A stretch of 64,000 nt of DNA from the NCBI GenBank assembly GCA_963674905.2, contig CAXXXR010000002.1:2658588-2722587 (forward strand), in the 5' to 3' direction. The notes beneath the pieces are model-generated. The model made no database searches. It had not been told where the DNA came from and was given only the letters and a program-made list of their open reading frames with translations. Below, one piece after another: positions 21,659-51,119 of the stretch; position 1 is the first letter of the stretch; each line of letters starts with the position of its first letter. Both the position numbers and the translations under genes were made by a program. This stretch comes from an uncultured Desulfobacula sp. Lineage in GTDB: Bacteria > Desulfobacterota > Desulfobacteria > Desulfobacterales > Desulfobacteraceae.

Positions 21659-22000
21659 CATGCCCCGCCCTCCTCGATAGTTTTTACGATATTCAGGATA
21701 TCAAAAATGCGCTTATATGCCCTTCCTCAACTCCAATAAAGAACATTCTGAAATATGTTTTCTGATTAAATTATATTTTCACCAAAGGTGATCTTCAATA
21801 TCTTTACAGGTTTCGGTTGTTAAGAATCGAATAGTGTAACGCCAAAGCCCCGAATCAGTGACAAAATACTGTAACGGGTATATCCCGCGACCAAACCCCG
21901 CCAATAGCAAAAAAATATACCCCGCTATCCCGTCGACTGTTCCCAAGCTGCCGGTTTGCGTATGTTTTTTGTCCAGCTTTGAACGCTGGAGAATTTATGA

Positions 22001-22303
22001 TGGCAAAAAATATGCAGTCCGGCATGTCAGAAAGAACAGCATCGAAGACAGTCTGAAAAATGGAACAGGAAGAATAAGGCGTATTTCAAAAGCAACTATT
22101 TGGCTGATAAGATTGATGCGATTGAGCAAAAGGAACAATCGAAAGATCCACCCATTATTGCACAGCAATCAGATCAGACAAAACCGATTTTACCAATGGA
22201 TGTCATCCTGGCTCAGTGGGGGAAGAGGTCTGAGGTCATCATCCGATATCTGGTCTTCCAGGTCACTCGCCATGTTCGTATCCGGTATAGAAAAAATGCC
22301 TGA
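22001..22303 (+). pseudogene. Remnant of a small Cys-rich protein (WQKICSPACQKEQHRRQSEKWNRKNKAYFKSNYL...), no intact start
   Basis: Open frame after the TGA at 21998. The CxxxCQ...W..KN..YF..NYL pattern resembles small ORFs I recall in deltaproteobacterial IS21-linked elements (unverified). Confidence 0.35.
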
Positions 22304-22586
22304 TAACATCAGGTCGTTTATCCAAAGCAAAGTCCCGACATTCGTTTTCAGATATTCAAAAACAGTGGAAAGAAAATATTTTGCAAACACCTGTCCGTAT
22401 TGCAATGTTATTTACGGCGACTTTTTTCTGCATGATGAAGCTGGGATCCCTTTTTTCCCCGCTGATGAGGACGACGCCAAGTTGCTATATATCAAAGAGA
22501 TTCCTATAAACGGACCCTTTGAAATCGAAGGTGGGGCAGGATCCGGAACGGGAGAAATGATTCTGGATCATGCAATACGAGTATGA
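22272..22586 (+). pseudogene. Probable 5'-truncated gene: C-terminal part resembling DUF5710-associated proteins
   Basis: FRYSKTV...YFANTCPYC...GDFFLHDE.G.PFFP is protein-like, whereas the upstream part of ORF 21858-22586 is not. Confidence 0.45.
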
Positions 22587-22725
22587 GTGCAACAACCATT
22601 AAAAATCTCACAATTATAATTTGTTTTGAACGATCAATTTCATAAACATTGACAAAAAAGCATGCCTTATGTAATTCATTTCAGATGAACCTTCTTTATA
22701 CGCCACAAAATGAGAAAGTATTCTA

Positions 22726-25710
22726 ATGATATCAAATAATTCTCAAATTAGTTTTAATGCGCTTCTTGAAAAATTTGAGATGATATCTGAAGGATACAAG
22801 TCTCCGAGTCTATTGTTACCCAATGACCTTCATTTGTCGGATAGTGACAAAATTATTTTAGAACAGGCGGGGAAATATAATGTTGATGCGGTATATGTAA
22901 GGCAATTCAATGATGGACGAACCTCTATCCCACAAATATACATATATGATTTTATAAAAAACCCCAGGAAAGATAATGAGATAACAGAACTGTATCGAAA
23001 AATTTGGAACTCCGGGCATGTTCCTCTTATTTTTTTATTTTTTAAAACAGAAATTCAAATATTAACCTGTTTAAAACAACCAGATTTCGATCCTAAAACC
23101 GGAAATCTTGCATATAGCCTATTTGAAAAGATTCATTTGGCGTCGAAAGCAAAAAAAGAGTTGGATAAATTTAAACGATTATCTGCTAGACGGTTTGATA
23201 ATGGCTCATTCTGGACTGACTCAAAATATAAAAGCAAATTTTCGTTAAAAGAGACTGCCTATATAAAGCTTTTAACTGAACTCAAAACAGCCAAACGAGA
23301 TATCATTAAAAAAGAGATTCTGGATGAGAATCTTACAAAAAAACTTCTTGTGATGTCGATTCTTGTCAAATACCTTGAAGAGAGAAAGGATAAAGACGGT
23401 AACAAAGTTTTTCCCAAAAGGTTTTTTATCAAATTTTCAAATGGGGAGGATAATTTTTTAGATGTCCTTCGTAAAAAAGGAGGATGCCTTCGATTATTTG
23501 ATGAACTGAGCAGCAAGAATAGTTTTAATGGAGAAATTTTTGCCTGGAACGGCAAAAAAGAAAGAGAGCAGTTAGCCGAAGCAGACTTGAACTCTTTTGC
23601 CGAATTTTTTGAAGGGCGGCTTGATAATGGTCAGTACACTTTTTGGCGGCTTTATTCATTTAATGATTTACCCATCGAGCTCATCAGTAATATCTATGAG
23701 GAATTTTTAGATAAAAAAGCCGGAGTCGTTTACACGCCGCCTTATTTGGTCAATTTGCTTATCGACGAGCTACTGCCGTTGTCTGATTTCGGAAAAAAAG
23801 AATTTAAGGTGTTGGATCCTGCGTGTGGGTCAGGTATTTTCCTGGTGGCCGCATACAAAAGGATGATTCAGTGGTGGAAAATCCGCAACAATTGGGCCAA
23901 ACCTGATTCCCAGAACTTAAATGAACTAAAAGAAATTTTAAAAAATAACATTTTTGGTGTTGATATTCACGAAGAAGCCGTACGCTTAACGTTTTTCAGC
24001 CTTAGTTTGGTGCTTTTAGATGAATTGTCACCAAAGGTTATCTGGGAAAATTTAAAATTTGATAATCTTATTGGGAACAATTTCATCAGCAATGATTTTT
24101 TTGAACTAATTGAGAACGATTTACTAAAGCCGGAATTCGATCTTATTGTGGGGAATCCTCCCTTTGAATCAAAATTGACAGATAGCGCAGCAAGGATTGA
24201 AAACAAAAGACGCCGGACGTATCCAAAATTACCGGATAATCAAATCGCACTGCTTCTTCTGGACCAGTCTATCACCCTGTGCAAAGAAAATGCATCTCTT
24301 TGTTTGATAATGCCGTCAGGCCCCTTTTTATACAATACCAATTCTGCTGATTTTCGAACTTATTTTTTTAACAAGTATCATGTTCCGCAGCTAATTGATT
24401 TTACGTTCCTCAGCCAGGTCCTTTTTGAGAGCGCAAACGTGCCGGTCACAGCGGTTTTTGCAAAGAATCAAAAGCCTGATGAAACAGACATCCTTCATGT
24501 TACGGTCCGCAGGACAAAACCAGCCAAAGAAAAGCTCTACTTTGAATTGGACCACTATGATTTTCATAAGGTGCCTTTTAAGGACGCTTTAAAAAGCAGG
24601 CTTGTCTGGAAAGCCAATTTGCTGGGAGGCGGCAGGCTAAGGCAGCTTTTGGACAGACTGGAACCCATCCGAAGTTTTGGTGCATTTCTATCTGAAAAAG
24701 AGCAGAATGACGGGTGGAAAATCGCAGAGGGATTTATCGTTGGAAATAAAGAGAAAATTGATACGCTTGTTAAATTGAAAGAAAAAGCGCCGGAATTATC
24801 TGATGAGGAAAACCTGAAGTTGAAGGAACTTGAAAAGAAGTTTCAACCAGCAGAATACCTTACCGGGAAAAATACACTGCCAACGGATGCATTCACAGAA
24901 GATGGCATCAATGACAATGAAATCTACAAACTTGAAAACAAATATTTTTATCGGAGTAGCAAAAAGAATAAAGAAATTTTTGAAGCCCCTCATCTTCTTA
25001 TAAAGGAAGGCGTATCAGAGACTTCAATTCCAGTAATATTTCGGGAAGACGACCTTTCCTTCAGGCATGAAATAATCGGTATTCATGCTCCGAATCAAGC
25101 AGAGGCTCTCAAAAAAATAGAAAACCGTTTCAGGAATAACAGAACATACCTTTTTCATGTTGCCGGATTCAGCAGCAGGTATATGATCACCAGAGCTACG
25201 GCCTTTCTAAAAAATGATATTGAATGCCTGCCTTACCCTGAGGATGAGACAGAGCTTAATCTATCGGATCTCGAACAAATTCTTATGGATGATGTGCTTG
25301 ATTATATGCTTGATTTCAGGAGAAAGGGCGAAAATGCGGACTCGGAAAAACCGGTAACACAGGGCCAGTTGAAACTATTTTCCAATGTCTATTGTAAGGT
25401 TTTGAATTCTGTTTATAAAAACATCAAACCGTATCACTCTTTTGAAACAAAATCATATATCTGCTTTCCTTTTTATTTTGATGATCCTTCATCCATTGCG
25501 CTTCAAAAAACCAAGGGGCTTGAAGACGATCTTGATGAACTGATCAAAAATAATGTGAGTTCTAATTCAAGAATCATTCGAATGCTTCGAATTTATGAAA
25601 ATAATATTATTTATCTTATTAAACCTAAGCAGACGCGCTATTGGTTACGTTCGGTTGCAATTCGGGATGCTGACGAAACCTTTTCTGATTTAGTGAACCA
25701 AGGGTTTTAA
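22726..25710 (+). CDS. Large N6-adenine DNA methyltransferase (gamma class, type IIG/HsdM-like, probable fused specificity domain)
   Basis: ISNIYE, GVVYTPPYLV, motif I VLDPACGSGIFL, FGVDI and motif IV IVGNPPF; 994 aa; AT-rich. Confidence 0.9.
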   Translation: MISNNSQISFNALLEKFEMISEGYKSPSLLLPNDLHLSDSDKIILEQAGKYNVDAVYVRQFNDGRTSIPQIYIYDFIKNPRKDNEITELYRKIWNSGHVPLIFLFFKTEIQILTCLKQPDFDPKTGNLAYSLFEKIHLASKAKKELDKFKRLSARRFDNGSFWTDSKYKSKFSLKETAYIKLLTELKTAKRDIIKKEILDENLTKKLLVMSILVKYLEERKDKDGNKVFPKRFFIKFSNGEDNFLDVLRKKGGCLRLFDELSSKNSFNGEIFAWNGKKEREQLAEADLNSFAEFFEGRLDNGQYTFWRLYSFNDLPIELISNIYEEFLDKKAGVVYTPPYLVNLLIDELLPLSDFGKKEFKVLDPACGSGIFLVAAYKRMIQWWKIRNNWAKPDSQNLNELKEILKNNIFGVDIHEEAVRLTFFSLSLVLLDELSPKVIWENLKFDNLIGNNFISNDFFELIENDLLKPEFDLIVGNPPFESKLTDSAARIENKRRRTYPKLPDNQIALLLLDQSITLCKENASLCLIMPSGPFLYNTNSADFRTYFFNKYHVPQLIDFTFLSQVLFESANVPVTAVFAKNQKPDETDILHVTVRRTKPAKEKLYFELDHYDFHKVPFKDALKSRLVWKANLLGGGRLRQLLDRLEPIRSFGAFLSEKEQNDGWKIAEGFIVGNKEKIDTLVKLKEKAPELSDEENLKLKELEKKFQPAEYLTGKNTLPTDAFTEDGINDNEIYKLENKYFYRSSKKNKEIFEAPHLLIKEGVSETSIPVIFREDDLSFRHEIIGIHAPNQAEALKKIENRFRNNRTYLFHVAGFSSRYMITRATAFLKNDIECLPYPEDETELNLSDLEQILMDDVLDYMLDFRRKGENADSEKPVTQGQLKLFSNVYCKVLNSVYKNIKPYHSFETKSYICFPFYFDDPSSIALQKTKGLEDDLDELIKNNVSSNSRIIRMLRIYENNIIYLIKPKQTRYWLRSVAIRDADETFSDLVNQGF

Positions 25711-25712
25711 TA

Positions 25713-26420
25713 ATGTTCAATGAAAAATATGAATCAGAAGTATCTGGCAGATTATCCGGACCTTACATACCTGAGTTTGACACATCGATCAAAGAGGTGA
25801 TTCTATTCATAGAAAAAAATCTCATTATTTTTTCTGAATCTATTGCGGTGTCCCAAATTCAAAATGAAAAAGGCCTCACACAAACGCTTGTCCAAATTCT
25901 CAATTTAAACGCCATGGGAGGATTTTCACCCTTTTGGTTCGAAAAAGAGTATATGGAAAATCCAGACAGGGGCGACAGCCCCTCGGTTGATATAGGTACG
26001 CTAAAAGTTGATAGTAGCGGTAATGTTATCAATTCAGTAGTTCTTGGAAATAAATCCTTTTATTCGATCGAGGCCAAAAGATTGCCCACACCAGGCAGTA
26101 ATAGAGAAAAAGAATATGTAATCGGTTCAAAAAACAATGGTGGAATTGAGCGCTTCAAAACCGGGAGACATGGATCTGAGCTAAAACACAGTGGAATGAT
26201 TGGGTTTGTTCAGAAAAATGATTTTAAATACTGGAATAAAAAAATTAACGAGTGGATTGTTGAGTTGACACAGACAAATAGCGAATCTGATATAAACTGG
26301 TATGAATCTGAGATTTTAATTCCTCAACATTTTAAAAAGACCACAGCTCAATTGATTTCGAAACACGAAAGAATGAACAAATCATACATATCTTTGTGTC
26401 ATTTATGGGTGTGCTTATGA
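25713..26420 (+). CDS. Hypothetical protein with a PD-(D/E)xK nuclease-like signature
   Basis: NEKGLT...E...SVDIG...IEAKRL, then EYV, GGIERFK.G.H and GMIGFV; starts 2 bp after the MTase stop. Confidence 0.65.
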   Translation: MFNEKYESEVSGRLSGPYIPEFDTSIKEVILFIEKNLIIFSESIAVSQIQNEKGLTQTLVQILNLNAMGGFSPFWFEKEYMENPDRGDSPSVDIGTLKVDSSGNVINSVVLGNKSFYSIEAKRLPTPGSNREKEYVIGSKNNGGIERFKTGRHGSELKHSGMIGFVQKNDFKYWNKKINEWIVELTQTNSESDINWYESEILIPQHFKKTTAQLISKHERMNKSYISLCHLWVCL

Positions 26421-26445
26421 ATGGCGGAATCAAGGACAGTAAACG

Positions 26446-27122
26446 ATGAATCAGTATCAAACAGATTATTCCAATGAAGTTCACCAACTAATTGTAACAC
26501 CATCAAAACATTTTTTCGTCACACGCAATGGCATTTTAAAATATCAAAAGAAACCCTTTGAAATAAAGCTTGAAAATTGTAACAATTTCAAAAAGACGCA
26601 TATAATTCATTATCTTATCAGAGATCATTTTAGCGGGTTGGTTTACTACGAGACATGTACATCTGATGCAGCAATCCCAATTCATGAATTTCTATTTAGA
26701 TCCTGGACTAAAAAGGAAAACAACCTTTCTATGGAATGCCTTCCTGTATGACTATCCCTAAAAATGTCCAACTATTTTTCCCTGGTTTGGTGAATTTTGT
26801 TGAAACATTGGGTATTGATTTCATAAAAGTCACAAGCGGTTTTCAAGGGGGTGTTCGCGACATAAGAACGATAGAAGATGAATTAAGATGCGCTGGATTG
26901 TTTTTGGGGAATCCTGAACAATTTCAGACTGAATTACCTTTTGAACTGATTTTAGAAAAATCATACGAAATCTGTTCCAGGCTTTCAGATAATTTTTATC
27001 GAAAACCGTCAAAAAAAGAAACTTGGTTCTCGGGCTTTGGTTCTGAACAAAAAATAAACATCCCCGAATCTTTAGAAATATTCAAAACTACATATCAAAG
27101 CATCGTGGAATCAGAATTTTGA
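26446..27122 (+). pseudogene. Frameshifted hypothetical gene (ORFs 26446-26751 + 26736-27122), integrase-core/RNase H-like
   Basis: Adding one base in the A-runs at 26710-26720 joins ...HYLIRDHFSGLVYYE...FLFRSWTKK to (E/G)KQPFYGMPSCMTIPK...; the second frame opens right after TAA at 26709. Confidence 0.6.
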
Positions 27123-27160
27123 TAGATAGAAACTTGAAAGCATACATATTCAAGAGTAAA

Positions 27161-27210
27161 TCCTAACAAAAAAATGCTGACGGGCAAGCCGCAGATTTTT
27201 GTGGTTGGGC
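27161..27210 (+). mobile_element. attC: Short attC-like integron cassette recombination site
   Basis: R'' TCCTAAC and R' GTTGGGC (exact GTTRRRY); arms aaaat[G]ctg[A]cgg / ccg-cag-atttt pair with two extrahelical bases; 39 bp downstream of a stop codon; only 50 bp long. Confidence 0.6.
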
Positions 27211-27215
27211 ATCCG

Positions 27216-27253
27216 TAATCACGCTTGACGTTAATCACGCAATGCGTTAATAT
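27216..27253 (+). promoter_or_regulatory. higBA promoter with probable operator
   Basis: TTGACG (27225-27230), 17 bp, TAATAT (27248-27253); direct repeat taatcacgc x2 (27216, 27232); palindrome acgca-a-tgcgt (27237-27247). Confidence 0.7.
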
Positions 27254-27259
27254 ATACCC

Positions 27260-27538
27260 ATGATAAAATCTTTCAAATGCAAATATACAAAAGCACTTTC
27301 GAAAGGCCAACGTGTTAAGCAGTTCGTAAATATTGAAAATGTTGCACGGCGTAAACTTAGGCAGCTTGAAATTGCTGGTCGAATTGAAGATTTGAGAGTC
27401 CCACCCGGAAATCACCTTGAAATGCTCAAAGGTTACCGTTCCGGCCAACACAGTATTCGAATAAACGATCAGTGGCGCCTTTGCTTCTGCTGGACGGATG
27501 CAGGTGCGGAAAATGTGGAGATAGTTGATTACCACTGA
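27260..27538 (+). CDS. higB: RelE/ParE-family toxin HigB
   Basis: MIKSFK, ARRKL..L, DLRVPPGNHLE.LKG.RSGQHSIRINDQWRLCF.W and VEIVDYH. Confidence 0.95.
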   Translation: MIKSFKCKYTKALSKGQRVKQFVNIENVARRKLRQLEIAGRIEDLRVPPGNHLEMLKGYRSGQHSIRINDQWRLCFCWTDAGAENVEIVDYH

Positions 27539-27550
27539 GGAGGATGTATT

Positions 27551-27862
27551 ATGAATAAGCTTAAACCGATTACACCGGGCGAGATTCTTTTGGAAGAATT
27601 TCTCAAGCCTATGGGTATCAGTCAATATCGTTTAGCCAAGGAAATAGACGTTCCTGCTCAGCGCATCAGTGAAATTGTTGCCGGGAAGCGCTCGGTTACT
27701 GCTGATACAGATTTACGGCTATGTCGATTTTTTGGTTTATCCAATGGGTACTGGCTTCGAGCACAAGCTGCTCACGATACGGAAATAGCCGAGCGAACCC
27801 TGAATGATATCATCATAAAAATCAGACCCTGGTCTGAGCATGTTGCCCAGCCAAACGCTTGA
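27551..27862 (+). CDS. higA: HigA addiction-module antitoxin (HTH)
   Basis: PITPGEILLEEFLKPMGISQYRLAK, RISEIVAGKR.VTADT.LRL.RFFG and W...Q..HD; GAGGAGG RBS. Confidence 0.95.
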   Translation: MNKLKPITPGEILLEEFLKPMGISQYRLAKEIDVPAQRISEIVAGKRSVTADTDLRLCRFFGLSNGYWLRAQAAHDTEIAERTLNDIIIKIRPWSEHVAQPNA

Positions 27863-27973
27863 GAGGGACTGGGCTTACTGAGCGGCTTTTCGCAAATATG
27901 TGGTTTGAAAAATAAAAACTATTATCTGAGGTTCCGGGTTCAAGACGCCCGGCCCCTCAGCTCCACGTTAGCC
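27845..27973 (+). mobile_element. attC: Long (129-bp) attC-like site closing the higBA cassette
   Basis: R'' GCCCAGC (AAC>AGC variant) overlaps the higA 3' end; L arm gcttgagagggactgggc pairs with gcccggcccctcagc via bulges; ends tcagctccac-GTTAGCC. Confidence 0.72.
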
Positions 27974-28182
27974 CTTTTGTTCTATAAACACACATTAAAT
28001 TCAGACCTCCTGACATCAGGCATTTTTAAATGCAAAATATGCCGCCTGAAAAACAAGTTTGGTTCAATTTTTTAAAACCTCACCTCTCGCAGATGAAAAC
28101 ATTGACGTGTCGAGGAATAAAGATATTCCAAGGGATATGGAAAATCCAGAGATGTCACGGCGGTGCTGTAAAAAGCCTCCTT

Positions 28183-42971: not shown

Positions 42972-44120
42972 TTATAACTCGTTAATCAACCGGCAATACA
43001 TTTGACACGCCTCTTCTATCTGCCGGACAGCGCATCGTTCATTTTTCATATGTGCCAGCTTATATTCACCCGGTCCAAATCCAATACAGGGGATGCCCAT
43101 TGAAACCGGCGTGACCGCATTTGTGCTGAAATCCCAAAAATCAAAACATTCAGGCCCATGATTATAAACCTTATGATATGCTTTTATCGCAGCCCTGGTA
43201 AGTGGATGGTCTTCATCGATTTTCCAGGGGGCATGCATGGGCTCATACACCAACTCAGTGCCGGTCCAGCTTGTCCGGTGCAGTGTGCCGACCTTCCAGG
43301 AGGCATTTTTTCCTTTTATCAGGGACATCATCTCCTCTGTTACCCCTTCCAGGGTTTCACCGAGTGCCAATCTGCGATCAAGATAAATCGTGCATTCACT
43401 CGGAACCGCATTTAATGAAACATTGGCACAGGAAATATCGGACAGGACTATGGTGCCGTGGGGTTCATCTTCCTTGTATAGTGATTTGTTTAACGCCTGG
43501 ACTCTTGAAATTATCTCTGCCATTTCATACACCGCATTCAACCCTTTCTCAGGCGCAGAACCGTGAGCAGCGACACCATGCGAAATTATACAAATTTGTG
43601 CTTTTCCTTTATGGCCAAGAGTGATGATGTTGTTGCTCGGTTCACAGATGATGCAGTAATTCGGCTTTAACGACAGTTCTTTATAAAGGTGTCTAAGGTT
43701 TTCACCGTCGCAATATTCTTCACAGACTGTTCCTGTTACATAAAGGGTTTTCCCTTCAATAAACCCATTGTCCCTTGCCAGAGCGGCACCGTAAATACTT
43801 GCACACAATGCTGATTTCATATCGACACTGCCGCGTCCCCATAGATAACCTTCCGCTATTTCTCCTGAAAAAGGAGAGAATTGCCATTCTTCAGCGTCAT
43901 GTACCTGGACCGTATCCATATGAGAGTCAAACTGGATAATCACCGGGCCGTTTCCAATTCGCCCAATTATATTGCCGGTGGAGTCTGTAAATACCTCATC
44001 ATAATTCAGCTTTTTCATCTCATTTAAAAAAATGTTTGCAACCGCCTCTTCTTCATTGGAGTAGCTTCTTGTCTGCACCGCCCTTTGGGTGAATCTGATC
44101 AGTTCCTGAATCTTAAGCAT
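42972..44120 (-). CDS. M20 metallohydrolase, YgeY-like
   Basis: DSHMDTV, WGRGSVDMK, TVCEEYCDG, GHKGK, AHGSAPE.G.NA and FSTN...GIPCIGFGPG. Confidence 0.85.
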   Translation of the reverse strand: MLKIQELIRFTQRAVQTRSYSNEEEAVANIFLNEMKKLNYDEVFTDSTGNIIGRIGNGPVIIQFDSHMDTVQVHDAEEWQFSPFSGEIAEGYLWGRGSVDMKSALCASIYGAALARDNGFIEGKTLYVTGTVCEEYCDGENLRHLYKELSLKPNYCIICEPSNNIITLGHKGKAQICIISHGVAAHGSAPEKGLNAVYEMAEIISRVQALNKSLYKEDEPHGTIVLSDISCANVSLNAVPSECTIYLDRRLALGETLEGVTEEMMSLIKGKNASWKVGTLHRTSWTGTELVYEPMHAPWKIDEDHPLTRAAIKAYHKVYNHGPECFDFWDFSTNAVTPVSMGIPCIGFGPGEYKLAHMKNERCAVRQIEEACQMYCRLINEL

Positions 44121-44184: not shown

Positions 44185-45876
44185 TTATTCCAAAAGCCAG
44201 GACTCGTGGTTGTAAATGCTTAAGAGAGCCGGGTGCAGCAGGGTATTGATCAAGGTGTTGTCAGTTGTCAGTTCACCTTTGCCGAAAACAAGTTCGCTTT
44301 TAAACACTTCCGGGGTGATAAACCGGGTGTCCACTTTGATTTCCATCCGGTCGATTCTGTCCATGATCTTTTCCTGTTTGGACTTTTTTTGTGTGGTCTG
44401 GGGGTGCCAGGCCAGGAACCATCCCCAGTCCCCAAAGCTGGGCACGTTTTCGTGGAAGGGAAGGATGGCGAGACCGGCGCTCTGGATGGTCCTGCCGATG
44501 CATAGAAAACTTTCCCTGGCAAGGTAGGGGGAGGTTGCCTGGACCACCATGAGTCCGTTTTGGGACAGGTGCAGCCTGACTTTTTTGTAAAACTGGGTGG
44601 CGTACAGCTTGGTCAGCTCGGGTGTGGACGGGTCGGGCATGTCGATGATGATTACATCCCAGGCCCCGGGCACCTGGCTTAAAAATTTATCTGCATCCAC
44701 ATTCATAATTTTGACGTCGGCAAGTTTTTGGGTCACAGGATGCCGGGTGTGGGGGTCTTTTCTGGGGGTGTCCATGTAGAGCTGTTTGTCGTCACCCGGG
44801 GCAACCCCCTGGCCTGTGGACACCACAACCCGGGCATCTTTGAACGCACCCTGGTTGATTCTTGCCAGAACCGGGTGGGTTCGGGCAAGGGTTGTCATTT
44901 CAGGATCAAGGTCCACCAGGAGCACCTGCTGTACCGCCTCATACTTTAAGACTTCCCTTAAGACGCAGCCGTCACCCCCGCCCAGGATGAGAACCCGTGA
45001 CTTGATTGGGGCAAGATTCATGACCGGGTGGACCATGGGTTCGTGGTAGCGCTGCTCATCCGTGCTGCAGTACTGGAGGTTCCCGTTCAAAAAGAGCCGG
45101 ACCTCGTCAAAGGGCTTGTAATGGGTGATAACGATGTGCTGGTATTGGGTGGTTTGACTTAAGATAATGGGATCATCGTAAAGAGGCTGCTCGATCTTGA
45201 TGTTCCACTCCCGGTTGTTCATAAACCCGTAGGATACGGCGCAGAAAACCGTGACCATGACAACGGGGATAAGCACCCCCTTTTGAATCAGGCCTTTATT
45301 TGAAAAATAGACAAAGGTGACAAAGGCCAGGGAAAAATTGACCCCGGCGGTGAGAAAGGCTGCCTCGGTAATAGGGAGGTATCTTAAGAGGATGAACACG
45401 TAGACCAGTGCCCCGGCCAGGCTTCCGATGTAATCGGCACTCAGGATGTTTCCCAGGTTGGTGGACAGTTCTTTGCTGAAGTCATTGTTGATCCGGATGA
45501 TCACGGGGATCTCAAGCCCAATCATGATCCCGATGAAAGAAACGAAAAAATAGAGGACCAGGCTGTAATGGGCCGTATATCCATAGGCGATATAGGTGAG
45601 GGTGGGTGAAAACCCGCCGGCCAGGGAAAGTCCGGTTTCAACCCCGATAAAGGCATAGATGAGGTGCTTTTTTTTGATCTGTGCCTGGATCAGGCTGCCG
45701 AATCCCATCCAGAACAGCATCAGCCCGATCACCATGGCCCATTGTTCAAAAGAGTTGCCCAGGATCATGGAGGCCAGGCTTGCCTGGATATATTCAAGAA
45801 TGATCCCGCAGGCCCCGCTGGCAAACATGCAGGCGCAGAGCAGGATCGAGGCAAAACTTGTTTTGGGGCGGCTCAT
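44185..45876 (-). CDS. speE: Membrane-bound polyamine aminopropyltransferase (multi-TM + spermidine-synthase domain)
   Basis: About 7 N-terminal TM helices; TQYQHIV, LFLNGNLQ..S.DE.RYHE, LGGGDG, VDLDP, DAD and IIDMPDP. Confidence 0.88.
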   Translation of the reverse strand: MSRPKTSFASILLCACMFASGACGIILEYIQASLASMILGNSFEQWAMVIGLMLFWMGFGSLIQAQIKKKHLIYAFIGVETGLSLAGGFSPTLTYIAYGYTAHYSLVLYFFVSFIGIMIGLEIPVIIRINNDFSKELSTNLGNILSADYIGSLAGALVYVFILLRYLPITEAAFLTAGVNFSLAFVTFVYFSNKGLIQKGVLIPVVMVTVFCAVSYGFMNNREWNIKIEQPLYDDPIILSQTTQYQHIVITHYKPFDEVRLFLNGNLQYCSTDEQRYHEPMVHPVMNLAPIKSRVLILGGGDGCVLREVLKYEAVQQVLLVDLDPEMTTLARTHPVLARINQGAFKDARVVVSTGQGVAPGDDKQLYMDTPRKDPHTRHPVTQKLADVKIMNVDADKFLSQVPGAWDVIIIDMPDPSTPELTKLYATQFYKKVRLHLSQNGLMVVQATSPYLARESFLCIGRTIQSAGLAILPFHENVPSFGDWGWFLAWHPQTTQKKSKQEKIMDRIDRMEIKVDTRFITPEVFKSELVFGKGELTTDNTLINTLLHPALLSIYNHESWLLE

Positions 45877-45879
45877 TTT

Positions 45880-46770
45880 TTACATGGAAAAGGCGATGAT
45901 GACGGCCACGGCATTAATGGCGCTTTCCACCAGGACCATGGCGGCAACGTTCCGGTCCTGTTCGATCTCCACGGCAATATTGGTGGTGGGTAGCAAAATC
46001 CGGTCCACCACCATCCTGAAGATCAGGAGCATGACAATGCCGTAGATCGTATACACGGCAAAACCGGCCACATCCCTGCCCCAGCCGGTAAAGGGCCCGG
46101 AAATACTGGCCATGAGAATAATTCCCAGGGCAATGAGGATCCCGCCCAGCCCGATGCCGGCGGCAAGATTGTTTTTCTTGATCTCATTTCTCACGTTAAA
46201 GGGGGTGATCAGTTCGTAGAGGAATCCAAAGACCAGAAGGGCCACCTGACCCAGAATAAAAAAGAGGCCGGCACTGAGGATGCCCTGGACAAAGGTGCCG
46301 CCGCCGCCGGATACGGCCCCGTTTAAAATAAATCCCGTGGCAATGTACATGCCCGCTTCCACCACGCCCACGGCGGTATTGCCGACCTTCCGGGTCCCGT
46401 CGGGCTGAATGAAGGTCTTGATGCATTCCTGGTCATTGTTGATATTGCCCAGCATGATATAATCGTTGATAAAGCGGGAGGAAAACATGAACCCCGTGAT
46501 AATCAGGCCGTCAATCAACAATTGGATGATGTCCAGGAAAAAGCCCCGGGAAGATCCGCCCATGGCACCGGACAATGCAATGGCGATCCCGAGATAGAGT
46601 CCGGCCCGTCTCAGTCCCACGGCAAGATTTCCATCGTCGATATGGCGATCATCATCAAAGTCTTTTGTGCGCCGGTCATCCAGGAGTTTGACCAGCCAGA
46701 TGAAGGCGATTCCCAGGACAACATAGATAAACCCCTGACCGAGACCTGCAAGTGTTATACCGATATTCAT
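45880..46770 (-). CDS. Tandem DUF350 membrane protein
   Basis: Two repeats of ...I..GN.AVG/NLAAGI... plus DRNVAA, all hydrophobic helices. Confidence 0.8.
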   Translation of the reverse strand: MNIGITLAGLGQGFIYVVLGIAFIWLVKLLDDRRTKDFDDDRHIDDGNLAVGLRRAGLYLGIAIALSGAMGGSSRGFFLDIIQLLIDGLIITGFMFSSRFINDYIMLGNINNDQECIKTFIQPDGTRKVGNTAVGVVEAGMYIATGFILNGAVSGGGGTFVQGILSAGLFFILGQVALLVFGFLYELITPFNVRNEIKKNNLAAGIGLGGILIALGIILMASISGPFTGWGRDVAGFAVYTIYGIVMLLIFRMVVDRILLPTTNIAVEIEQDRNVAAMVLVESAINAVAVIIAFSM

Positions 46771-46791
46771 TCTTTTCTCCTTAACATTTTT

Positions 46792-48417
46792 CTATTTACC
46801 TTTATTGTTCGGTCCGCCGCCCCGGAGGCCGGAAGCGGCACCCCGGACGGAAGCGGTCTGGGATCTGAACCCCCCGGTCCTTGCAAAATTCGAACTTTGA
46901 AATCCAGGGGATTGTTTGACTGCCGTGCCCGAGGTTCCATACTGCTGGAACCCGTTCTGGGTTTTACCGAAATAGGGCCGGCTGTTTCGATAGCCGCTGT
47001 TCCACCCGTTCCAGGAATTATACCCGTAATAGGAGGGCCGGGAATTGAAGAGCATTGAAAACAGGGCATATTTGCCATACCAGGACCAGAAGGAATTGCC
47101 TGAACTGTCCGTTTTCCACTCCCCGTATTTGTCGTTGCCCACATAGGCCATGCCCGGGGGAGCCGCCTGGACGTCCCGGTCTTCTTCAAACACCCCATAG
47201 GGCTTGGCCAGGATGGCCATACCGAGATATTCAAAATTGGCATCATAAACGTCCGGCTCCACCGGTTCCCAGTCCGTCTCCCGGGTCTCGCCCTCCTGTT
47301 CCAACAGATACTTATGAAAATAGGCTTCCCTTGAGTCTTCTACCCAGAACGCGGCGGCATTGTGCCCTCTTCCCGGCCAGTGTTCAGCCGGGTTTATGGC
47401 CAGCTCTTTCCACCGATCCCCGATTTTGCTTGAAAATTTTGATCCGGTAAATCCCGCGGTGATGGTGGCGATGGTGTCCAGATCCTCTGCAATCAGGGCC
47501 TCGTAAAGTTCAGGACTGACCTGGCGCTGGTAGGTGGCAAATCTGGGGTCGTAATAATCGGAGTTTTCATCCCAGGACTCTCTTTTGATGGTGACAAAAT
47601 AGTCTTCCTTCATATCCTTGAGGATCTTGGTGTAGCTGGTATAGAGCTGGGCCATTTGTTTGGAAAAGGTTTTTTCATGTTCCAGGGCCTGTTTAAGCCC
47701 TGCATCAAGGGCCTGGGTGCTGTCGGCAAATGCGGCATAGTCCGGGTCTGATCCTGACCTGTGGTTGGCGTATTGGGTTTTCACCACAGTGGAATGGTTT
47801 CGGGACTGGCTGTCAAGTTTTGACAGGGGCGCAAACCGGGCATTGATTTTGTCGCTTAACCCTGGAAAGTCTGCCAGGGCTTTTGCCATGACATTGTTTT
47901 GTATCTCCTCAGCAATTTTCCGGATCTGTCGCGCATGGGTCTCTGCCCGGGGTGCCAGGGCGTCTGCGTTCTGAATACTGTCTCTTATTAAAGTATACCG
48001 GGACATGGGTGCCCGGGCCAGGTCTTCCCCATCCTGGATCACACCTTGAATCCGGGTGATCTGCTGTTTGACCTGGGCCGCAAGTTCGGGTGTGTTCTTT
48101 TTGACCAGAGGTTTCAGGTCCTGGTCGTAGAGTGATCCTGCCCGTGAAAGCTCATCCCGGGCTTCTTGGAATTTTTGGGTCCAGTTTTCCTTCGCCGCAT
48201 AGGATTCAACCGCCTTGAATTCAGATGTTTTTGCAAGGCTCTTGTACCGGTCCTCTTGTACGTCCACCCGGGAGCCGGCCTCCTTGACAATCTGGGGAAC
48301 CGCCCTGGCTTTATCCCTGAGGTCCCCGGGAAGACCCGGGCCACATCCCGTTAAAAACAGCAGTCCTGCCACGGCCATTCCTGCCACAAGGGTCTTGACC
48401 GGATAATTTTTGATCAT
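46792..48417 (-). CDS. Hypothetical lipoprotein with helical N-half and Gly/Ser/aromatic-rich tail ending RGGGPNNKGK
   Basis: Lipobox LTGC; YVGNDKYGEW..DSSGNSFW.WYG.Y motif; low-complexity C-terminus. Confidence 0.8.
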   Translation of the reverse strand: MIKNYPVKTLVAGMAVAGLLFLTGCGPGLPGDLRDKARAVPQIVKEAGSRVDVQEDRYKSLAKTSEFKAVESYAAKENWTQKFQEARDELSRAGSLYDQDLKPLVKKNTPELAAQVKQQITRIQGVIQDGEDLARAPMSRYTLIRDSIQNADALAPRAETHARQIRKIAEEIQNNVMAKALADFPGLSDKINARFAPLSKLDSQSRNHSTVVKTQYANHRSGSDPDYAAFADSTQALDAGLKQALEHEKTFSKQMAQLYTSYTKILKDMKEDYFVTIKRESWDENSDYYDPRFATYQRQVSPELYEALIAEDLDTIATITAGFTGSKFSSKIGDRWKELAINPAEHWPGRGHNAAAFWVEDSREAYFHKYLLEQEGETRETDWEPVEPDVYDANFEYLGMAILAKPYGVFEEDRDVQAAPPGMAYVGNDKYGEWKTDSSGNSFWSWYGKYALFSMLFNSRPSYYGYNSWNGWNSGYRNSRPYFGKTQNGFQQYGTSGTAVKQSPGFQSSNFARTGGFRSQTASVRGAASGLRGGGPNNKGK

Positions 48418-48419
48418 CC

Positions 48420-49052
48420 TTATTGATCTCCTTTGCTGATAATGGTGACTGCGCCCGGTTCAACAGGAGTTGAGGTGTAGATCCGGTACTCATCCCTGCC
48501 CGATCCAGACCACTCCTCAACCGTGAGAAATTTCGTATGGCTTTCATTTTCAAATTCATACATATAGACTTTTTCTCTTCTGTCCCCCCGAAGGTATATG
48601 GCGGCCCAGTCATCCTCATACCAGAAGTTTTCCCCGGCAAGGACGATCACATCCTTGTCATCGGCAATCTGGTCAAGGTCATCTTCATCTATGGCCTGTC
48701 CCCCGTCATCTTTTAAATCCCTGAAGGAGAGACGTTCAAGGGTCATGGAGATTTCAAGTTCATCATCAAATTCCCACTCAAGGTGAACGCTTTTTCCGGT
48801 GTCCAGGCAGAGGCAGGTGAGTTCATGGATGAAATACCCCTGTCCGGTTTTAAAATCATCCGAGAACTCTTCGTATGTATTGATGTCCGTGACAACATAG
48901 GTCTGGCCGTGGCAGTCGAAAAACGATTGGACCCCGGCATCTCTGATGTCCAGTCTTGATGCCTCCTGCCCTGAAACAAGGTCTGCTTGTTTCAGGCTCC
49001 GGATGGCTGTGATTCTTGACTGAAAAGATTTTTGTGTGGCCGCGTCAAGCAT
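48420..49052 (-). CDS. DUF4178-like protein
   Basis: Beta-rich and acidic; LEWE.DDELE, YMYEF, FLTVEEW and Y.STPVEP..VTI. Confidence 0.65.
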   Translation of the reverse strand: MLDAATQKSFQSRITAIRSLKQADLVSGQEASRLDIRDAGVQSFFDCHGQTYVVTDINTYEEFSDDFKTGQGYFIHELTCLCLDTGKSVHLEWEFDDELEISMTLERLSFRDLKDDGGQAIDEDDLDQIADDKDVIVLAGENFWYEDDWAAIYLRGDRREKVYMYEFENESHTKFLTVEEWSGSGRDEYRIYTSTPVEPGAVTIISKGDQ

Positions 49053-49091
49053 GGAATGCCTCCATTGGTTTAGTGGGTTTGGCCGGCAACA

Positions 49092-50324
49092 TCAATCCTT
49101 GCGCCGTGCCGTTAATGCATCGGTCCTTGCCCGGAACCGGTCGTTCATTTTTCCCAGGGCATTGGAACTCTGGGAGGCAATATTAATGGTTTCCTGGGAA
49201 ATCAGGGCATAGGTTTCAAATGCCTGTTCATAGGTCTGACACGCCTCTTCCAGGGCCTCGATGTTCACGGTCATGCTCTGGCTCATCTGGGCACCCTTGA
49301 TGGCGGCGTTGCCGATGACCTTTGCCGTGTCCTTCATGGTTTCTGCGGCTGCCTGCTGGACCATGTCCAGGTGCTGGAGGGTTTCCATCTGCTGTTCCGC
49401 CGCCACCCGGACGGCCAGGGCATTTTTAACGGCAGTGGAAAGGATCATGTCGGTCCGCTGGACCAGGCGCCGAACCAAATGGGAGTTTCTCACCATCATC
49501 TCGCCGCCGAACCGGGTCTGGAGATTTGAATTGTCAATGGTCTGGAGGTCCACCACGGCCATGGCAAGATCCGAGGTCAGGGTGGTCAGGGCCTCTTTAT
49601 TCCTGGGGTCGTCAATGGTGGCCAGATGCTCCATGAGCTTCTGCCAGATGATCTGGCCGAGAAAGATCTGCTCCTGGAGCCGGGGCTGGATCTCCTTTAA
49701 TGCGTCACAGATGGTGGACAACTCTGCCGCATCAAAGGCCACCTGGTCGGATTCGTTTCTCAAATGGTCCCGGATGCCGTCAATGGTGGAGTTAACGGTT
49801 TCCCTGCGCTCGGCAATGATCCTCAGGATTTCATCCCCCTTGGGCAGACGGTTCACGGTCTTGGTGAACAGGCCCAGCATTTTTTTGGGAAACGGGAGTT
49901 CGGTTTTCCCCACCACGGTTGGATTAACCTTGTCCAGTTCCGTTTTAATGGCCAGAATATTTTTCCCCACAGGTGAGGATTCATCCGTAGCCACATTCCT
50001 GAGCACGTTGCCCATCTTGCGGTCATAGAGACTGACCTGGGTCTGGGTCTCCTGCATGATGTCCCGGCCCAGGCCGAAAACAAAATCGCCCAGTTGCCAG
50101 TCGGAGGGGTCCTCTTTGATTTTTTCAAGGAATTCATTTGCCCGGGCTTCAGCCGCCTGTATATCTTCCACGGTCATATGTTTGGGCTGAACCGGTTCAA
50201 GGTTGGAAGGGGTCTGGACTGGGGTCAGGGCACCCTGACCCGATACCTGGGTCACCTCGGCAAGGACGGGGGCCTTTGCCTGGTGGGCAACATTTTGAAG
50301 GTCCTGGGTCATGTCATTCATCAT
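49092..50324 (-). CDS. Toxic anion resistance protein (TelA/KlaA family)
   Basis: Long coiled-coil protein; true start MMNDMTQD at 50324 follows AAGGAGG; TelA-like N-terminal G...Q and NS.LV..VQR. Confidence 0.7.
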   Translation of the reverse strand: MMNDMTQDLQNVAHQAKAPVLAEVTQVSGQGALTPVQTPSNLEPVQPKHMTVEDIQAAEARANEFLEKIKEDPSDWQLGDFVFGLGRDIMQETQTQVSLYDRKMGNVLRNVATDESSPVGKNILAIKTELDKVNPTVVGKTELPFPKKMLGLFTKTVNRLPKGDEILRIIAERRETVNSTIDGIRDHLRNESDQVAFDAAELSTICDALKEIQPRLQEQIFLGQIIWQKLMEHLATIDDPRNKEALTTLTSDLAMAVVDLQTIDNSNLQTRFGGEMMVRNSHLVRRLVQRTDMILSTAVKNALAVRVAAEQQMETLQHLDMVQQAAAETMKDTAKVIGNAAIKGAQMSQSMTVNIEALEEACQTYEQAFETYALISQETINIASQSSNALGKMNDRFRARTDALTARRKD

Positions 50325-50364
50325 ATCCTCCTTAGGGAACTTTGTTTTGTTAATCCAGCGTTCT

Positions 50365-50943
50365 TCATGAAAATTTTCCGGCAAGGAAATTGGCCATGGT
50401 CTTGAATTCCGCAGTCTCGTTTTTTTCAACAATATCCCTGGACCGGTGGGAGACCTCGTGCAGGTTTTCAATGGTTTCCTCGAAGATGGCCGCCTGGTTT
50501 TTCCGGCTCTCCGTGGACAGGTCAAGGTATTCCTTGACTGTGTTGAAAAGATGCTTTTTACCGATCTTCTTGATCTCATAGGTCAGGGCTTCACCGGGGT
50601 ATCGTTCCATCATGGCCGGGGTGACAACACTTAAATCATCAATAATGGTCTCTATCTTCTGGGTCATGCCATCGGGAAGATCCCGGTCTTTTCTCAGGAC
50701 CATATTACATTGCAGCAGCACCTCCAGGATGGATTTAAACTCCTGGTCAGGAGATTGTCCCGGCCCGGAAGAGGAACCTTGCCCGGAGGAGGACTGGGGC
50801 CCGTGGTCAGACCCTGTTTTTTGGGGTTGAGTGTTGCCCGATTGAGCTTGCCCGGATTTATTTTTGGGGGACCTGTTTTTCATCATCAGGGCAACGCCCA
50901 CAACGGCGATGCAGAATACGGCGGCTGTAATGATCGTTGTCAT
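50365..50943 (-). CDS. Membrane-anchored hypothetical protein, XpaC-like TelA partner
   Basis: N-terminal TM, Ser/Gly/Gln linker, and helical domain with YLDLS...F...ANFLAGKF; AAGGAG RBS; directly upstream of telA. Confidence 0.6.
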   Translation of the reverse strand: MTTIITAAVFCIAVVGVALMMKNRSPKNKSGQAQSGNTQPQKTGSDHGPQSSSGQGSSSGPGQSPDQEFKSILEVLLQCNMVLRKDRDLPDGMTQKIETIIDDLSVVTPAMMERYPGEALTYEIKKIGKKHLFNTVKEYLDLSTESRKNQAAIFEETIENLHEVSHRSRDIVEKNETAEFKTMANFLAGKFS

Positions 50944-51119
50944 TGTGCGGCTCCTTGGGGGTTAACCTTTTTAATTCCATCATATTTTAGGAAACAATAA
51001 TGCAAAACTTCAATTTTACAAGGCCGGGAAAATTGCTAAATATGACCCCACTCTATATGGGGTATGCCCAAAAATCAAGCCGGACCCGGGAGATTTGTCG
51101 TCCCGGAAAAAATGGATAC

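Follow-up and report, generated by a model that had tools for sequence, protein, structure and literature searches.

The window analysed here, 64,000 nucleotides (64 kb) of DNA from an uncultured Desulfobacula sp. (assembly GCA_963674905.2, contig CAXXXR010000002.1, positions 2,658,588 to 2,722,587), carries on its minus strand a run of six co-oriented genes between positions 50943 and 44185. In gene order, these encode a small membrane protein that we term g1, a protein of the TelA family, a DUF4178 protein, a lipoprotein, a tandem DUF350 protein and a membrane-bound aminopropyltransferase of the spermidine synthase type (SpeE). The intergenic gaps from g1 to the aminopropyltransferase measure 40, 39, 2, 21 and 3 bp, with the start of TelA placed at 50324. 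A first-pass annotation of the same DNA had described six co-oriented genes separated by 2-40 bp, and a check of the open reading frames (ORFs) bears this out at these positions. It had also remarked that neither PspA nor an S-adenosylmethionine (AdoMet) decarboxylase is encoded in the window, and this too holds: searches of the 64 kb with hidden Markov models (HMMs) built from relatives' operons found no gene for AdoMet decarboxylase, PspA, CesT or a K+ channel, PspA and CesT_Tir_1 gave no match in the window at E<=1, and a motif scan of the window for AdoMet decarboxylase was likewise negative. The six-gene set, with its order kept, was seen on at least 20 independent contigs; the flanks of these contigs are unrelated, and the arrangement is therefore more than chance. 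Judged by gene order, the six genes form one conserved unit.

The core of this unit has been described before. Ravi et al. (2024, mSystems; PMC11237479) reported operons in which a CesT/Tir-PspA pair accompanies a DUF4178 protein, a Ctha_1186 lipoprotein whose tail is of low complexity, a YjfL/DUF350 protein with eight transmembrane (TM) segments and a 7-TM spermine/spermidine-synthase, with SO_3765/SO_3766 of Shewanella oneidensis as an example. The same paper describes a sister group organised about an ATP-grasp ligase, represented by the E. coli yjf operon, and variants that have something else in place of the CesT/PspA pair. The recurrence of DUF350, DUF4178 and membrane SpeE genes beside PspA, which the first-pass annotation had taken as established, is thus correct and already published. 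The operon in the window has all four of these core families and lacks the CesT/Tir-PspA dyad. Both are operons of six to seven genes predicted to act at the envelope; they differ at the head, which is CesT/Tir plus PspA in the published operon and g1 plus TelA here, g1 being a TM protein rather than a CesT-fold chaperone, and in the lipoprotein, which in the window has an extra helical N-terminal region of ~335 residues. Precedent for a replaced head exists in the PspA-free variants with DUF4247 and DUF2617 (Ravi et al., 2024; M. tuberculosis CCP45395.1/CCP45394.1), although the replacement in those is a secreted or lipoprotein component with a predicted enzyme rather than a coiled-coil protein of the cytoplasm paired with a membrane anchor. 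The parallel drawn earlier with E. coli yjfIJKLMC also stands. That cluster and ygiBC comprise the CesT-like YjfI, the PspA-family YjfJ, DUF2491, the DUF350 protein YjfL, the DUF1190 lipoproteins YjfM and YgiB and the ligases YjfC and YgiC; as in the window, there is a membrane protein of the DUF350 family, the lipoprotein is exported and has a tail rich in Ser, Arg and Gly, and the last gene encodes an enzyme of polyamine chemistry, but these clusters have a soluble ATP-grasp ligase, a Gly-Gly tail end and a PspA-family head where the window has a membrane aminopropyltransferase, a Gly-Lys end and TelA. TelA and XpaC are mentioned neither in Ravi et al. (2024) nor in its supplement, and a full-text literature search for this domain combination found no other paper. 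The core module is accordingly known already, and the TelA/g1 head is a variant that we found nowhere described.

How the two heads are distributed was surveyed by aligning the enzyme with diverse representatives and scanning one genome per species, which yielded 80 loci from many phyla. ORFs were called and annotated with HMMs built iteratively, both for the six proteins of the window and for recurrent neighbours, the latter checked against Pfam (PspA_IM30, CesT_Tir_1, AdoMet_dc, an Ion_trans_2+TrkA_N channel, DUF2617, DUF4247 and amine oxidase). Fifteen of the 80 species-level loci carry both g1 and TelA, invariably in the order g1, TelA, DUF4178, (DUF2617), lipoprotein, DUF350, SpeE, and in a later count g1 lies directly upstream of TelA in 18/18 TelA-bearing loci. 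The pair is carried by Desulfobacteraceae (the isolate Desulfobacter latus among them), by a metagenome-assembled genome (MAG) of Desulfococcaceae, by gammaproteobacterial MAGs, by one unclassified proteobacterium and by a MAG of the Deferribacteres. Six further TelA-type contigs with unrelated flanks, one of them from Woeseiaceae, were reached from other anchors (L001, L084-L086, L170 and L171), and the linkage that the first-pass annotation saw in a single genome therefore extends over several lineages. PspA is present in 22 of the 80 loci, 13 times with CesT, and none of these 22 has TelA; TelA and PspA share a locus in 0/80 cases, and no pspA lies within +/-10 kb of any of 17 TelA-type loci, such that PspA is evidently not a constant companion of the module. 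In a neighbour-joining tree of SpeE the TelA-type enzymes fall in one clade, which also includes a few TelA-less loci. Their co-occurrence marks g1 and TelA as obligate partners, of one another as well as of this enzyme clade, and in this sample they are mutually exclusive with PspA. TelA and g1 hold the position of the CesT/Tir-PspA pair in otherwise homologous operons. The earlier suggestion that TelA and its partner replace PspA is thus supported in part, by mutual exclusivity and conserved position; a PspA-like fold for TelA and XpaC homology for its partner are not supported. Two Desulfobacteraceae MAGs (L014, 3-783; L015, 3-1501) encode an enzyme 51-53% identical to that of the window and a long-form GK-tailed lipoprotein, and have upstream not TelA/g1 and DUF4178 but unrelated ORFs of 120 and 130 aa or 116 and 401 aa; these may represent a third kind of head, on contigs that are short.

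The first gene of the operon, g1 (50365-50943, minus strand; 192 aa, ribosome-binding site AAGGAG), encodes a TM helix at residues ~3-22, a low-complexity Ser/Gly/Gln linker and a helical domain of ~125 aa ending in NETAEFKTMANFLAGKFS, which is predicted to be cytoplasmic because basic residues follow the TM segment. An alignment of 17 homologues has a single TM helix in the Desulfobacteraceae, the versions from Gammaproteobacteria and Deferribacteres having two, and N80, R84, E98, D102, L104, P109, L120, E179 and F186 are invariant. A profile search of 5.8 billion proteins found 114 members of the family, none of them annotated as XpaC, and three look-ups anchored on g1 each reached the same operon. 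The label "XpaC-like" that g1 had been given is not supported as a statement of homology. The protein matches no Pfam family, and PF10112 (XpaC, Halogen_Hydrol) fails to match it even at E<=10; against a cut-off of 29.8 bits, that profile found one of the 17 aligned homologues (L020, 16.9 bits) and, among 10 divergent family members, P0366 (15.0 bits), both gammaproteobacterial and both matched solely over the N-terminal TM hairpin (profile 1-65 of 191). What g1 does have is the XpaC-type architecture, with one or two N-terminal TM helices and a cytoplasmic helical domain of ~130 aa in a protein of ~190 aa encoded directly upstream of telA. The likeness to XpaC is one of architecture and position, a resemblance and not a demonstrated homology. 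A relationship to CesT was also tried and rejected (hhalign probability 1.1%).

The mechanically called ORF for TelA begins at 50579, within g1, and the ATG at 50324 behind AAGGAGG was taken as the real start, which gives a protein of 410 aa (49092-50324, minus strand). Its assignment to the TelA family in the first-pass annotation is secure: PF05816 matches at E 6e-23 and 81.9 bits (gathering cut-off 30) over profile positions 32-328 of 332, and is present in 120/120 among the relatives listed. The protein is all-helical, with neither signal peptide nor TM segment. An AlphaFold2 model built on 41 sequences, with a predicted local distance difference test score (pLDDT) of 60.9, has its two longest helices, 162-234 and 240-309, in succession, followed by helices at 314-349 and 355-409. 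A tblastn comparison with plasmids found no plasmid TelA, the window protein being very divergent, and a sequence search of the PDB found no solved structure.

Pairs of this kind are familiar from Firmicutes, where B. subtilis xpaC-yaaN, L. monocytogenes lmo1966-lmo1967 and E. faecium xpaC-telA likewise have, immediately upstream of a TelA-family (YaaN) gene, one for a protein of ~190 aa in which N-terminal TM helices are joined to a helical domain in the cytoplasm. They have been linked to stress from membrane-active cationic compounds: in E. faecium, the effect of an xpaC deletion on daptomycin binding and on phospholipid domains requires an intact telA (PMC6811118), and a Listeria telA mutant is, as cited in PMC12791056, more sensitive to nisin. 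In the window, by contrast, g1 falls below the XpaC threshold, TelA is too divergent to retrieve plasmid TelA genes by tblastn, and the pair belongs to an operon type of six to eight genes. Since xpaC-telA exists as a stand-alone two-gene unit in Firmicutes, g1 and TelA could be an independent resistance unit against toxic anions or cationic peptides that happens to lie upstream of an unrelated polyamine operon, and the gaps on either side of TelA (40 bp to g1 and 39 bp to DUF4178) are indeed the widest in the cluster. The survey largely refutes this explanation, which we consider scarcely credible. Every TelA-type locus keeps the linkage and the gene order without exception, in several lineages and between unrelated flanks, the g1 family was seen in this context only, and TelA-type loci are without PspA. 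Moreover, stop and start codons overlap (-1 to -8 nt) in the gammaproteobacterial operons, which indicates translational coupling, and the overlap between TelA and DUF4178 is 4-8 nt there.

Downstream of TelA, the DUF4178 protein (48420-49052, minus strand; 210 aa; PF13785, 5.6e-12) is beta-rich and predicted to be cytoplasmic, and its family is present in 52/84 loci. The tandem DUF350 (YjfL-family) protein (45880-46770, minus strand; 296 aa) is matched by PF03994 in two stretches (3.6e-51) and has eight hydrophobic peaks, as expected of an 8-TM inner-membrane protein; DUF350 stands beside SpeE in 71 of the 83 loci counted. Other genes join the operon in relatives. DUF2617 lies inside three TelA-type operons (L028, L053 and L085), and AdoMet_dc occurs within or beside the operon in 24/84 loci, among them the TelA-type loci L026, L053, L084, L170 and L171. 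The AdoMet_dc gene directly follows speE and overlaps its end in the Woeseiaceae locus (L084), stands last, after a K+ channel gene, in an eight-gene form from a gammaproteobacterial genome of 4.8 Mb (L170), and belongs to a cluster directly upstream on the same strand in a Desulfobacula sp. (L171, GCA_900105645.1) whose TelA is 89% identical to that of the window. Fuller versions of the operon thus add an AdoMet decarboxylase and an RCK-gated K+ channel. In the same Desulfobacula sp. (L171, 2108-8067), ~8 kb separates a glycine-zipper lipoprotein gene from g1, unlike in the window, where g1 directly follows the glycine-zipper gene. This stretch encodes, on the operon strand, AdoMet_dc, a FemAB-like Acetyltransf_6 protein, an ATP-grasp_3/4 ligase, an Orn/DAP/Arg decarboxylase and a radical SAM enzyme, and also holds a divergent sigma-54 activator and two small ORFs of 52 and 57 aa; it could be a polyamine-conjugate or peptide-modification pathway that feeds the module.

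The aminopropyltransferase (44185-45876, minus strand; 563 aa) has a Pfam Spermine_synth domain and matches NCBIfam NF002956 (PRK03612), named polyamine aminopropyltransferase, over residues 6-558 (1.3e-171; 571.6 bits against a cut-off of 472). Among solved structures, those closest to it are thermospermine synthase (6bq2) and Thermus SpeE (3anx/1uir). The N-terminal domain (residues 1-232; 45181-45876) comprises seven predicted TM helices of 22-32 residues in an AlphaFold2 model with pLDDT mostly 70-90, and E28, E80, E122, D148 and N180 are conserved within the membrane among 45 diverse homologues. The SpeE catalytic domain (residues 233-563; 44185-45180) carries GGGDG at 299-303, the motif D412-x-P-D415-P and a disordered insertion at ~350-391. 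Three catalytic signatures were looked for, namely GGGDG with the SAM-excluding acidic residue, DE..YHE and D..D(P), and all three are there; across the 45 homologues, at 33-46% identity, Q246, D273, Y277, H278, G299-G303, D324, D394, D412 and D415 are invariant. The earlier observation of intact GGGDG and IDMPDP motifs is therefore confirmed, and the conserved residues indicate that the enzyme keeps a full catalytic site for decarboxylated S-adenosylmethionine (dcSAM) and an amine. Real aminopropyl transfer is likely because the catalytic residues are invariant and relatives carry AdoMet decarboxylase in or beside the operon, and the activity that the first-pass annotation ascribed to this membrane enzyme is thereby made credible. 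Averaged over 80 homologues, Lys plus Arg number 6.96 on the side of the N-terminus and loops L2, L4 and L6 and 0.36 on that of L1, L3 and L5; together with the seven helices, this bias (the positive-inside rule) predicts a cytoplasmic N-terminus and a catalytic domain that faces outward from the cytoplasmic membrane. An apparent 958-aa SpeE "fusion" in one relative (L039) was discarded as an artefact of ORF extension in high-GC DNA.

The lipoprotein (46792-48417, minus strand; 541 aa) has a signal peptide with the lipobox LTGC (LTG-C25), the helical N-terminal extension at about residues 26-360 and a Ctha_1186-type domain at 362-513; it matches no Pfam family, and residues 362-513 are matched at E 2.3e-40 by an HMM of 24 short forms from PspA-type and other loci. 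A basic, Gly/Ser/Arg-rich tail (46795-46878, minus strand) closes the protein with SVRGAASGLRGGGPNNKGK (...RGGGPNNKGK), and hence with an invariant Gly-Lys-COOH. This GK terminus is found in 49/49 Ctha_1186-family lipoproteins, 8/8 of a second lipoprotein family (c16) and both DUF4247 lipoproteins surveyed, which come from PspA-type loci of the Bacillus group (L068 and L070), as well as on the lipoproteins of all five extra TelA-type loci. In the Clostridia, where these lipoproteins are absent, the tail ends either a fusion of DUF4178, a single TM helix and an extracytoplasmic domain or a small TM protein, giving nine non-lipoprotein carriers against a background of 6/1179 other ORFs. The tail lies extracytoplasmically in every case. 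A GK-tailed protein is encoded in 66/71 loci with DUF350 beside SpeE, and among the five exceptions three are cut by contig ends and two (L067 and L075) have an acidic tail instead. The latter have a variant operon (L067, 654-1898; L075, 8228-9583) of two Zn-ribbon DUF4178 proteins, a single DUF350 and SpeE, in which the second DUF4178 protein ends in ...EEDDD or ...SSSEDDS. Beside the ATP-grasp peptide-spermidine ligases YjfC and YgiC, the E. coli proteins YjfM and YgiB have a similar tail with a Gly-Gly end; so do 73/78 DUF1190 ORFs adjacent to such ligases (39/44 distinct tails, from 80 metagenomic loci), and four of the exceptions are broken ORFs. The last residue of the tail co-varies, across these sequences, with the chemistry of the enzyme, GK accompanying the aminopropyltransferase and GG the peptide-spermidine ligase.

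The Lys terminus admits a more conventional reading, in which it attaches the lipoprotein to peptidoglycan and has nothing to do with the aminopropyltransferase. Braun's lipoprotein Lpp is joined to meso-diaminopimelate through the epsilon-amine of its C-terminal Lys, and the window protein is, like Lpp, a lipoprotein with a terminal Lys. The GK tail is nonetheless also found in Clostridia and Bacilli and on TM fusions that are not lipoproteins, and it follows the type of enzyme (SpeE or ATP-grasp) and not the type of cell wall; to our knowledge, the Lpp linkage is restricted to some Gammaproteobacteria. We therefore regard attachment of this sort as very unlikely. Alternatively, the enzyme may be an ordinary membrane-tethered polyamine synthase that uses di- or triamines in solution to make spermidine, thermospermine or a longer polyamine as a free product, with the 7-TM domain or DUF350 exporting or positioning the product, the tail acting as a polycation-like binder of the membrane or periplasm and TelA/g1 as a stress scaffold. 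Its solved relatives, a thermospermine synthase and a Thermus triamine/agmatine aminopropyltransferase, and its NCBIfam name agree with this, as does the amine oxidase that adjoins the enzyme in three relatives (L021, L024 and L019), which would fit the turnover of free polyamine. The invariant D415 does so too; the equivalent residue in soluble spermidine synthases binds the distal ammonium of the diamine acceptor. An ordinary synthase leaves unexplained, however, why a Gly-Lys end should sit on four unrelated scaffolds beside this enzyme and a Gly-Gly end beside the ATP-grasp ligase, and a study of AdoMetDC linkage by Li et al. (2019), as relayed by Ravi et al. (PMC11237479), raised aminopropylation of substrates other than polyamines. 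We hold this explanation to be a serious but minority possibility.

The dipeptide rule itself suggests what the tails might be for. A ligase that needs a carboxylate is paired with a free glycine carboxylate, and an aminopropyltransferase with a lysine side chain; on these grounds we put forward the tail terminus as the acceptor. The lysine side chain is a four-carbon primary amine, like putrescine, and may accept an aminopropyl group. In its strong form the proposal is that the GK tail is the physiological aminopropyl acceptor, that the catalytic domain faces outside with the 7-TM domain passing dcSAM outward, and that the ATP-grasp operons of the E. coli type arrive at an equivalent end-product through amidation of a Gly-Gly-COOH tail with spermidine. 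We offer this form tentatively and think it rather unlikely to be right in full. Two caveats attach to the tail as acceptor: the ATP-grasp enzymes are cytoplasmic and their proposed tails exported, and the invariant D415 is what would be expected for a diamine acceptor. A 2025 review (PMC11762307) still described the physiological substrate of YgiC and YjfC as unknown.

Taken together, we read the locus as a TelA-headed variant of a conserved envelope module composed of DUF4178, a GK-tailed exported protein, an 8-TM DUF350 protein and a 7-TM aminopropyltransferase, and we give this reading, including the mechanism that follows, a probability of roughly 70%. g1 would sit in the inner membrane by its TM anchor and extend its helical domain into the cytoplasm, where it would dock or regulate the soluble coiled-coil TelA at the inner face, by analogy with the genetic relation of XpaC to TelA in Firmicutes and with the membrane partners of PspA. 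DUF4178 would serve as a cytoplasmic adaptor for the transmembrane part. An AdoMet decarboxylase encoded elsewhere in the genome is assumed to supply dcSAM, and with it the 7-TM enzyme would aminopropylate an amine at the surface of the membrane. Both the catalytic domain of the enzyme and the GK tail are predicted to lie at the outer face. The output would be added positive charge of the polyamine type at the envelope, while TelA/g1 would monitor or protect the cytoplasmic face during envelope or cation stress. The module is most likely an envelope-stress or cation-homeostasis system whose acceptor is either a free polyamine or the Gly-Lys tail.

Several observations weigh against this reading. 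The window has no AdoMet decarboxylase, such that the supply of donor is assumed here, and an outward-facing domain needs dcSAM to cross to the outer face, for which we know of no precedent. The mutual exclusivity of TelA and PspA was assessed within +/-10 kb of the loci, and many survey loci have neither protein within 10 kb; a head pair is not obligatory. Promoter and terminator scans of the window were overall not above chance. With regard to TelA, a PspA-like role as membrane-remodelling scaffold is argued from position alone, as an analogy. The first-pass annotation had proposed comparing TelA with PspA and ESCRT-III folds, and the comparison revealed no relationship: hhalign of the TelA profile with a PspA profile from 13 operon-encoded PspAs gave a probability of 0.6%, and no PspA, Vipp1 or ESCRT-III/CHMP chain is among the top 50 Foldseek matches in the PDB, the model that was searched being of low confidence (pLDDT 61). 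The best match of this low-confidence model has E 0.035, TM-scores are at most 0.29, and the weak matches are generic coiled coils and ClyA-type toxins. Kinship of TelA with PspA or ESCRT-III is thus unsupported by profile comparison, PDB sequence search and structural modelling alike, and TelA is, as far as its sequence goes, a non-homologous occupant of the PspA slot. Components of ClyA-family alpha-pore-forming toxins (ClyA, PaxB, XaxA, YaxA and SmhA) recur at Foldseek ranks 9, 15, 22, 25, 30, 31 and 41, which may merely reflect long helical bundles in a low-confidence model.

No mechanism has been assigned to TelA since its first association with tellurite resistance, and its placement in the PspA slot with an obligate membrane partner leads to the hypothesis that it is, on the inner side of the membrane, a functional analogue of PspA, in an operon that supplies it with defined partners (g1, DUF4178, DUF350 and SpeE). 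The module itself is uncharacterised, and this includes the M. tuberculosis example of Ravi et al. and the yjf and ygi operons of E. coli; the tail rule (GK versus GG) makes the substrate question of these enzymes answerable by mass spectrometry. Should the proposal prove true, two unrelated enzymes would "polyaminate" the C-terminus of a tail-bearing envelope protein while TelA or PspA guards the cytoplasmic face, the substrates of YgiC and YjfC would be named as YgiB and YjfM, and bacteria would prove to have a novel type of protein modification at their envelope, with relevance to the tolerance of cationic peptides and membrane stress.

The short gaps, the stop/start overlaps in relatives and one metatranscriptome contig from a relative suggest that the six genes are co-transcribed in this organism. 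Metatranscriptome contigs indicate that relatives of TelA are transcribed in marine sediments, and one contig spans TelA and DUF4178 in a relative, which is weak evidence; these contigs come from relatives, and the operon structure of the present organism cannot be read from them. In three sediment metatranscriptomes (X9, X10 and X11), contigs 80-95% alike stack over TelA at 49100-50100, with a word depth of up to 62, and hardly cover the other five genes. The relatives of TelA may be far more strongly transcribed than the other genes of the operon, or this may simply be the most conserved stretch of nucleotides.

Upstream of g1, an alignment of nine Desulfobacteraceae upstream regions has, besides the ribosome-binding site, a sole strongly conserved stretch, a promoter-like block (CCTTGTAAAATTGAAGTTTTGCATTATTG; 50990-51025, minus strand) lying 55-85 nt before the start codon. 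It reads TTGTAA-N16-TATTGT and overlaps two sigma-70-like hits of the scan that was overall not above chance. A second conserved block (CTTGATTTTT; 51046-51080, minus strand; alignment columns 224-265) is followed by the inverted repeat ACCCCA-TATAGAG-TGGGGT, the arms of which vary between relatives yet still pair, and could be an operator. PspA operons are often sigma-54 dependent, and a sigma-54 promoter was considered upstream of g1 and rejected, as the conserved block lacks a GG at the correct spacing from its TTGCA. At the other end, 64 bp downstream of speE, lies a gene for a YgeY-family M20 hydrolase linked to selenium metabolism (42972-44120, minus strand; NF009555, 1.7e-113); it was rejected as a seventh gene of the operon, its position not being conserved among relatives. 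Further away in the window, at 22000-28000, GC content falls to 0.37-0.385 from ~0.50-0.55 elsewhere. The plus-strand ORFs of this island at 22726-25710 and 25713-26420 include a 994-aa fused restriction-modification enzyme of the Eco57I/MmeI type (PF07669, PF02384 and PF20473), the ORFs flanking the enzyme belong to no family, and the island is probably a horizontally acquired defence island.

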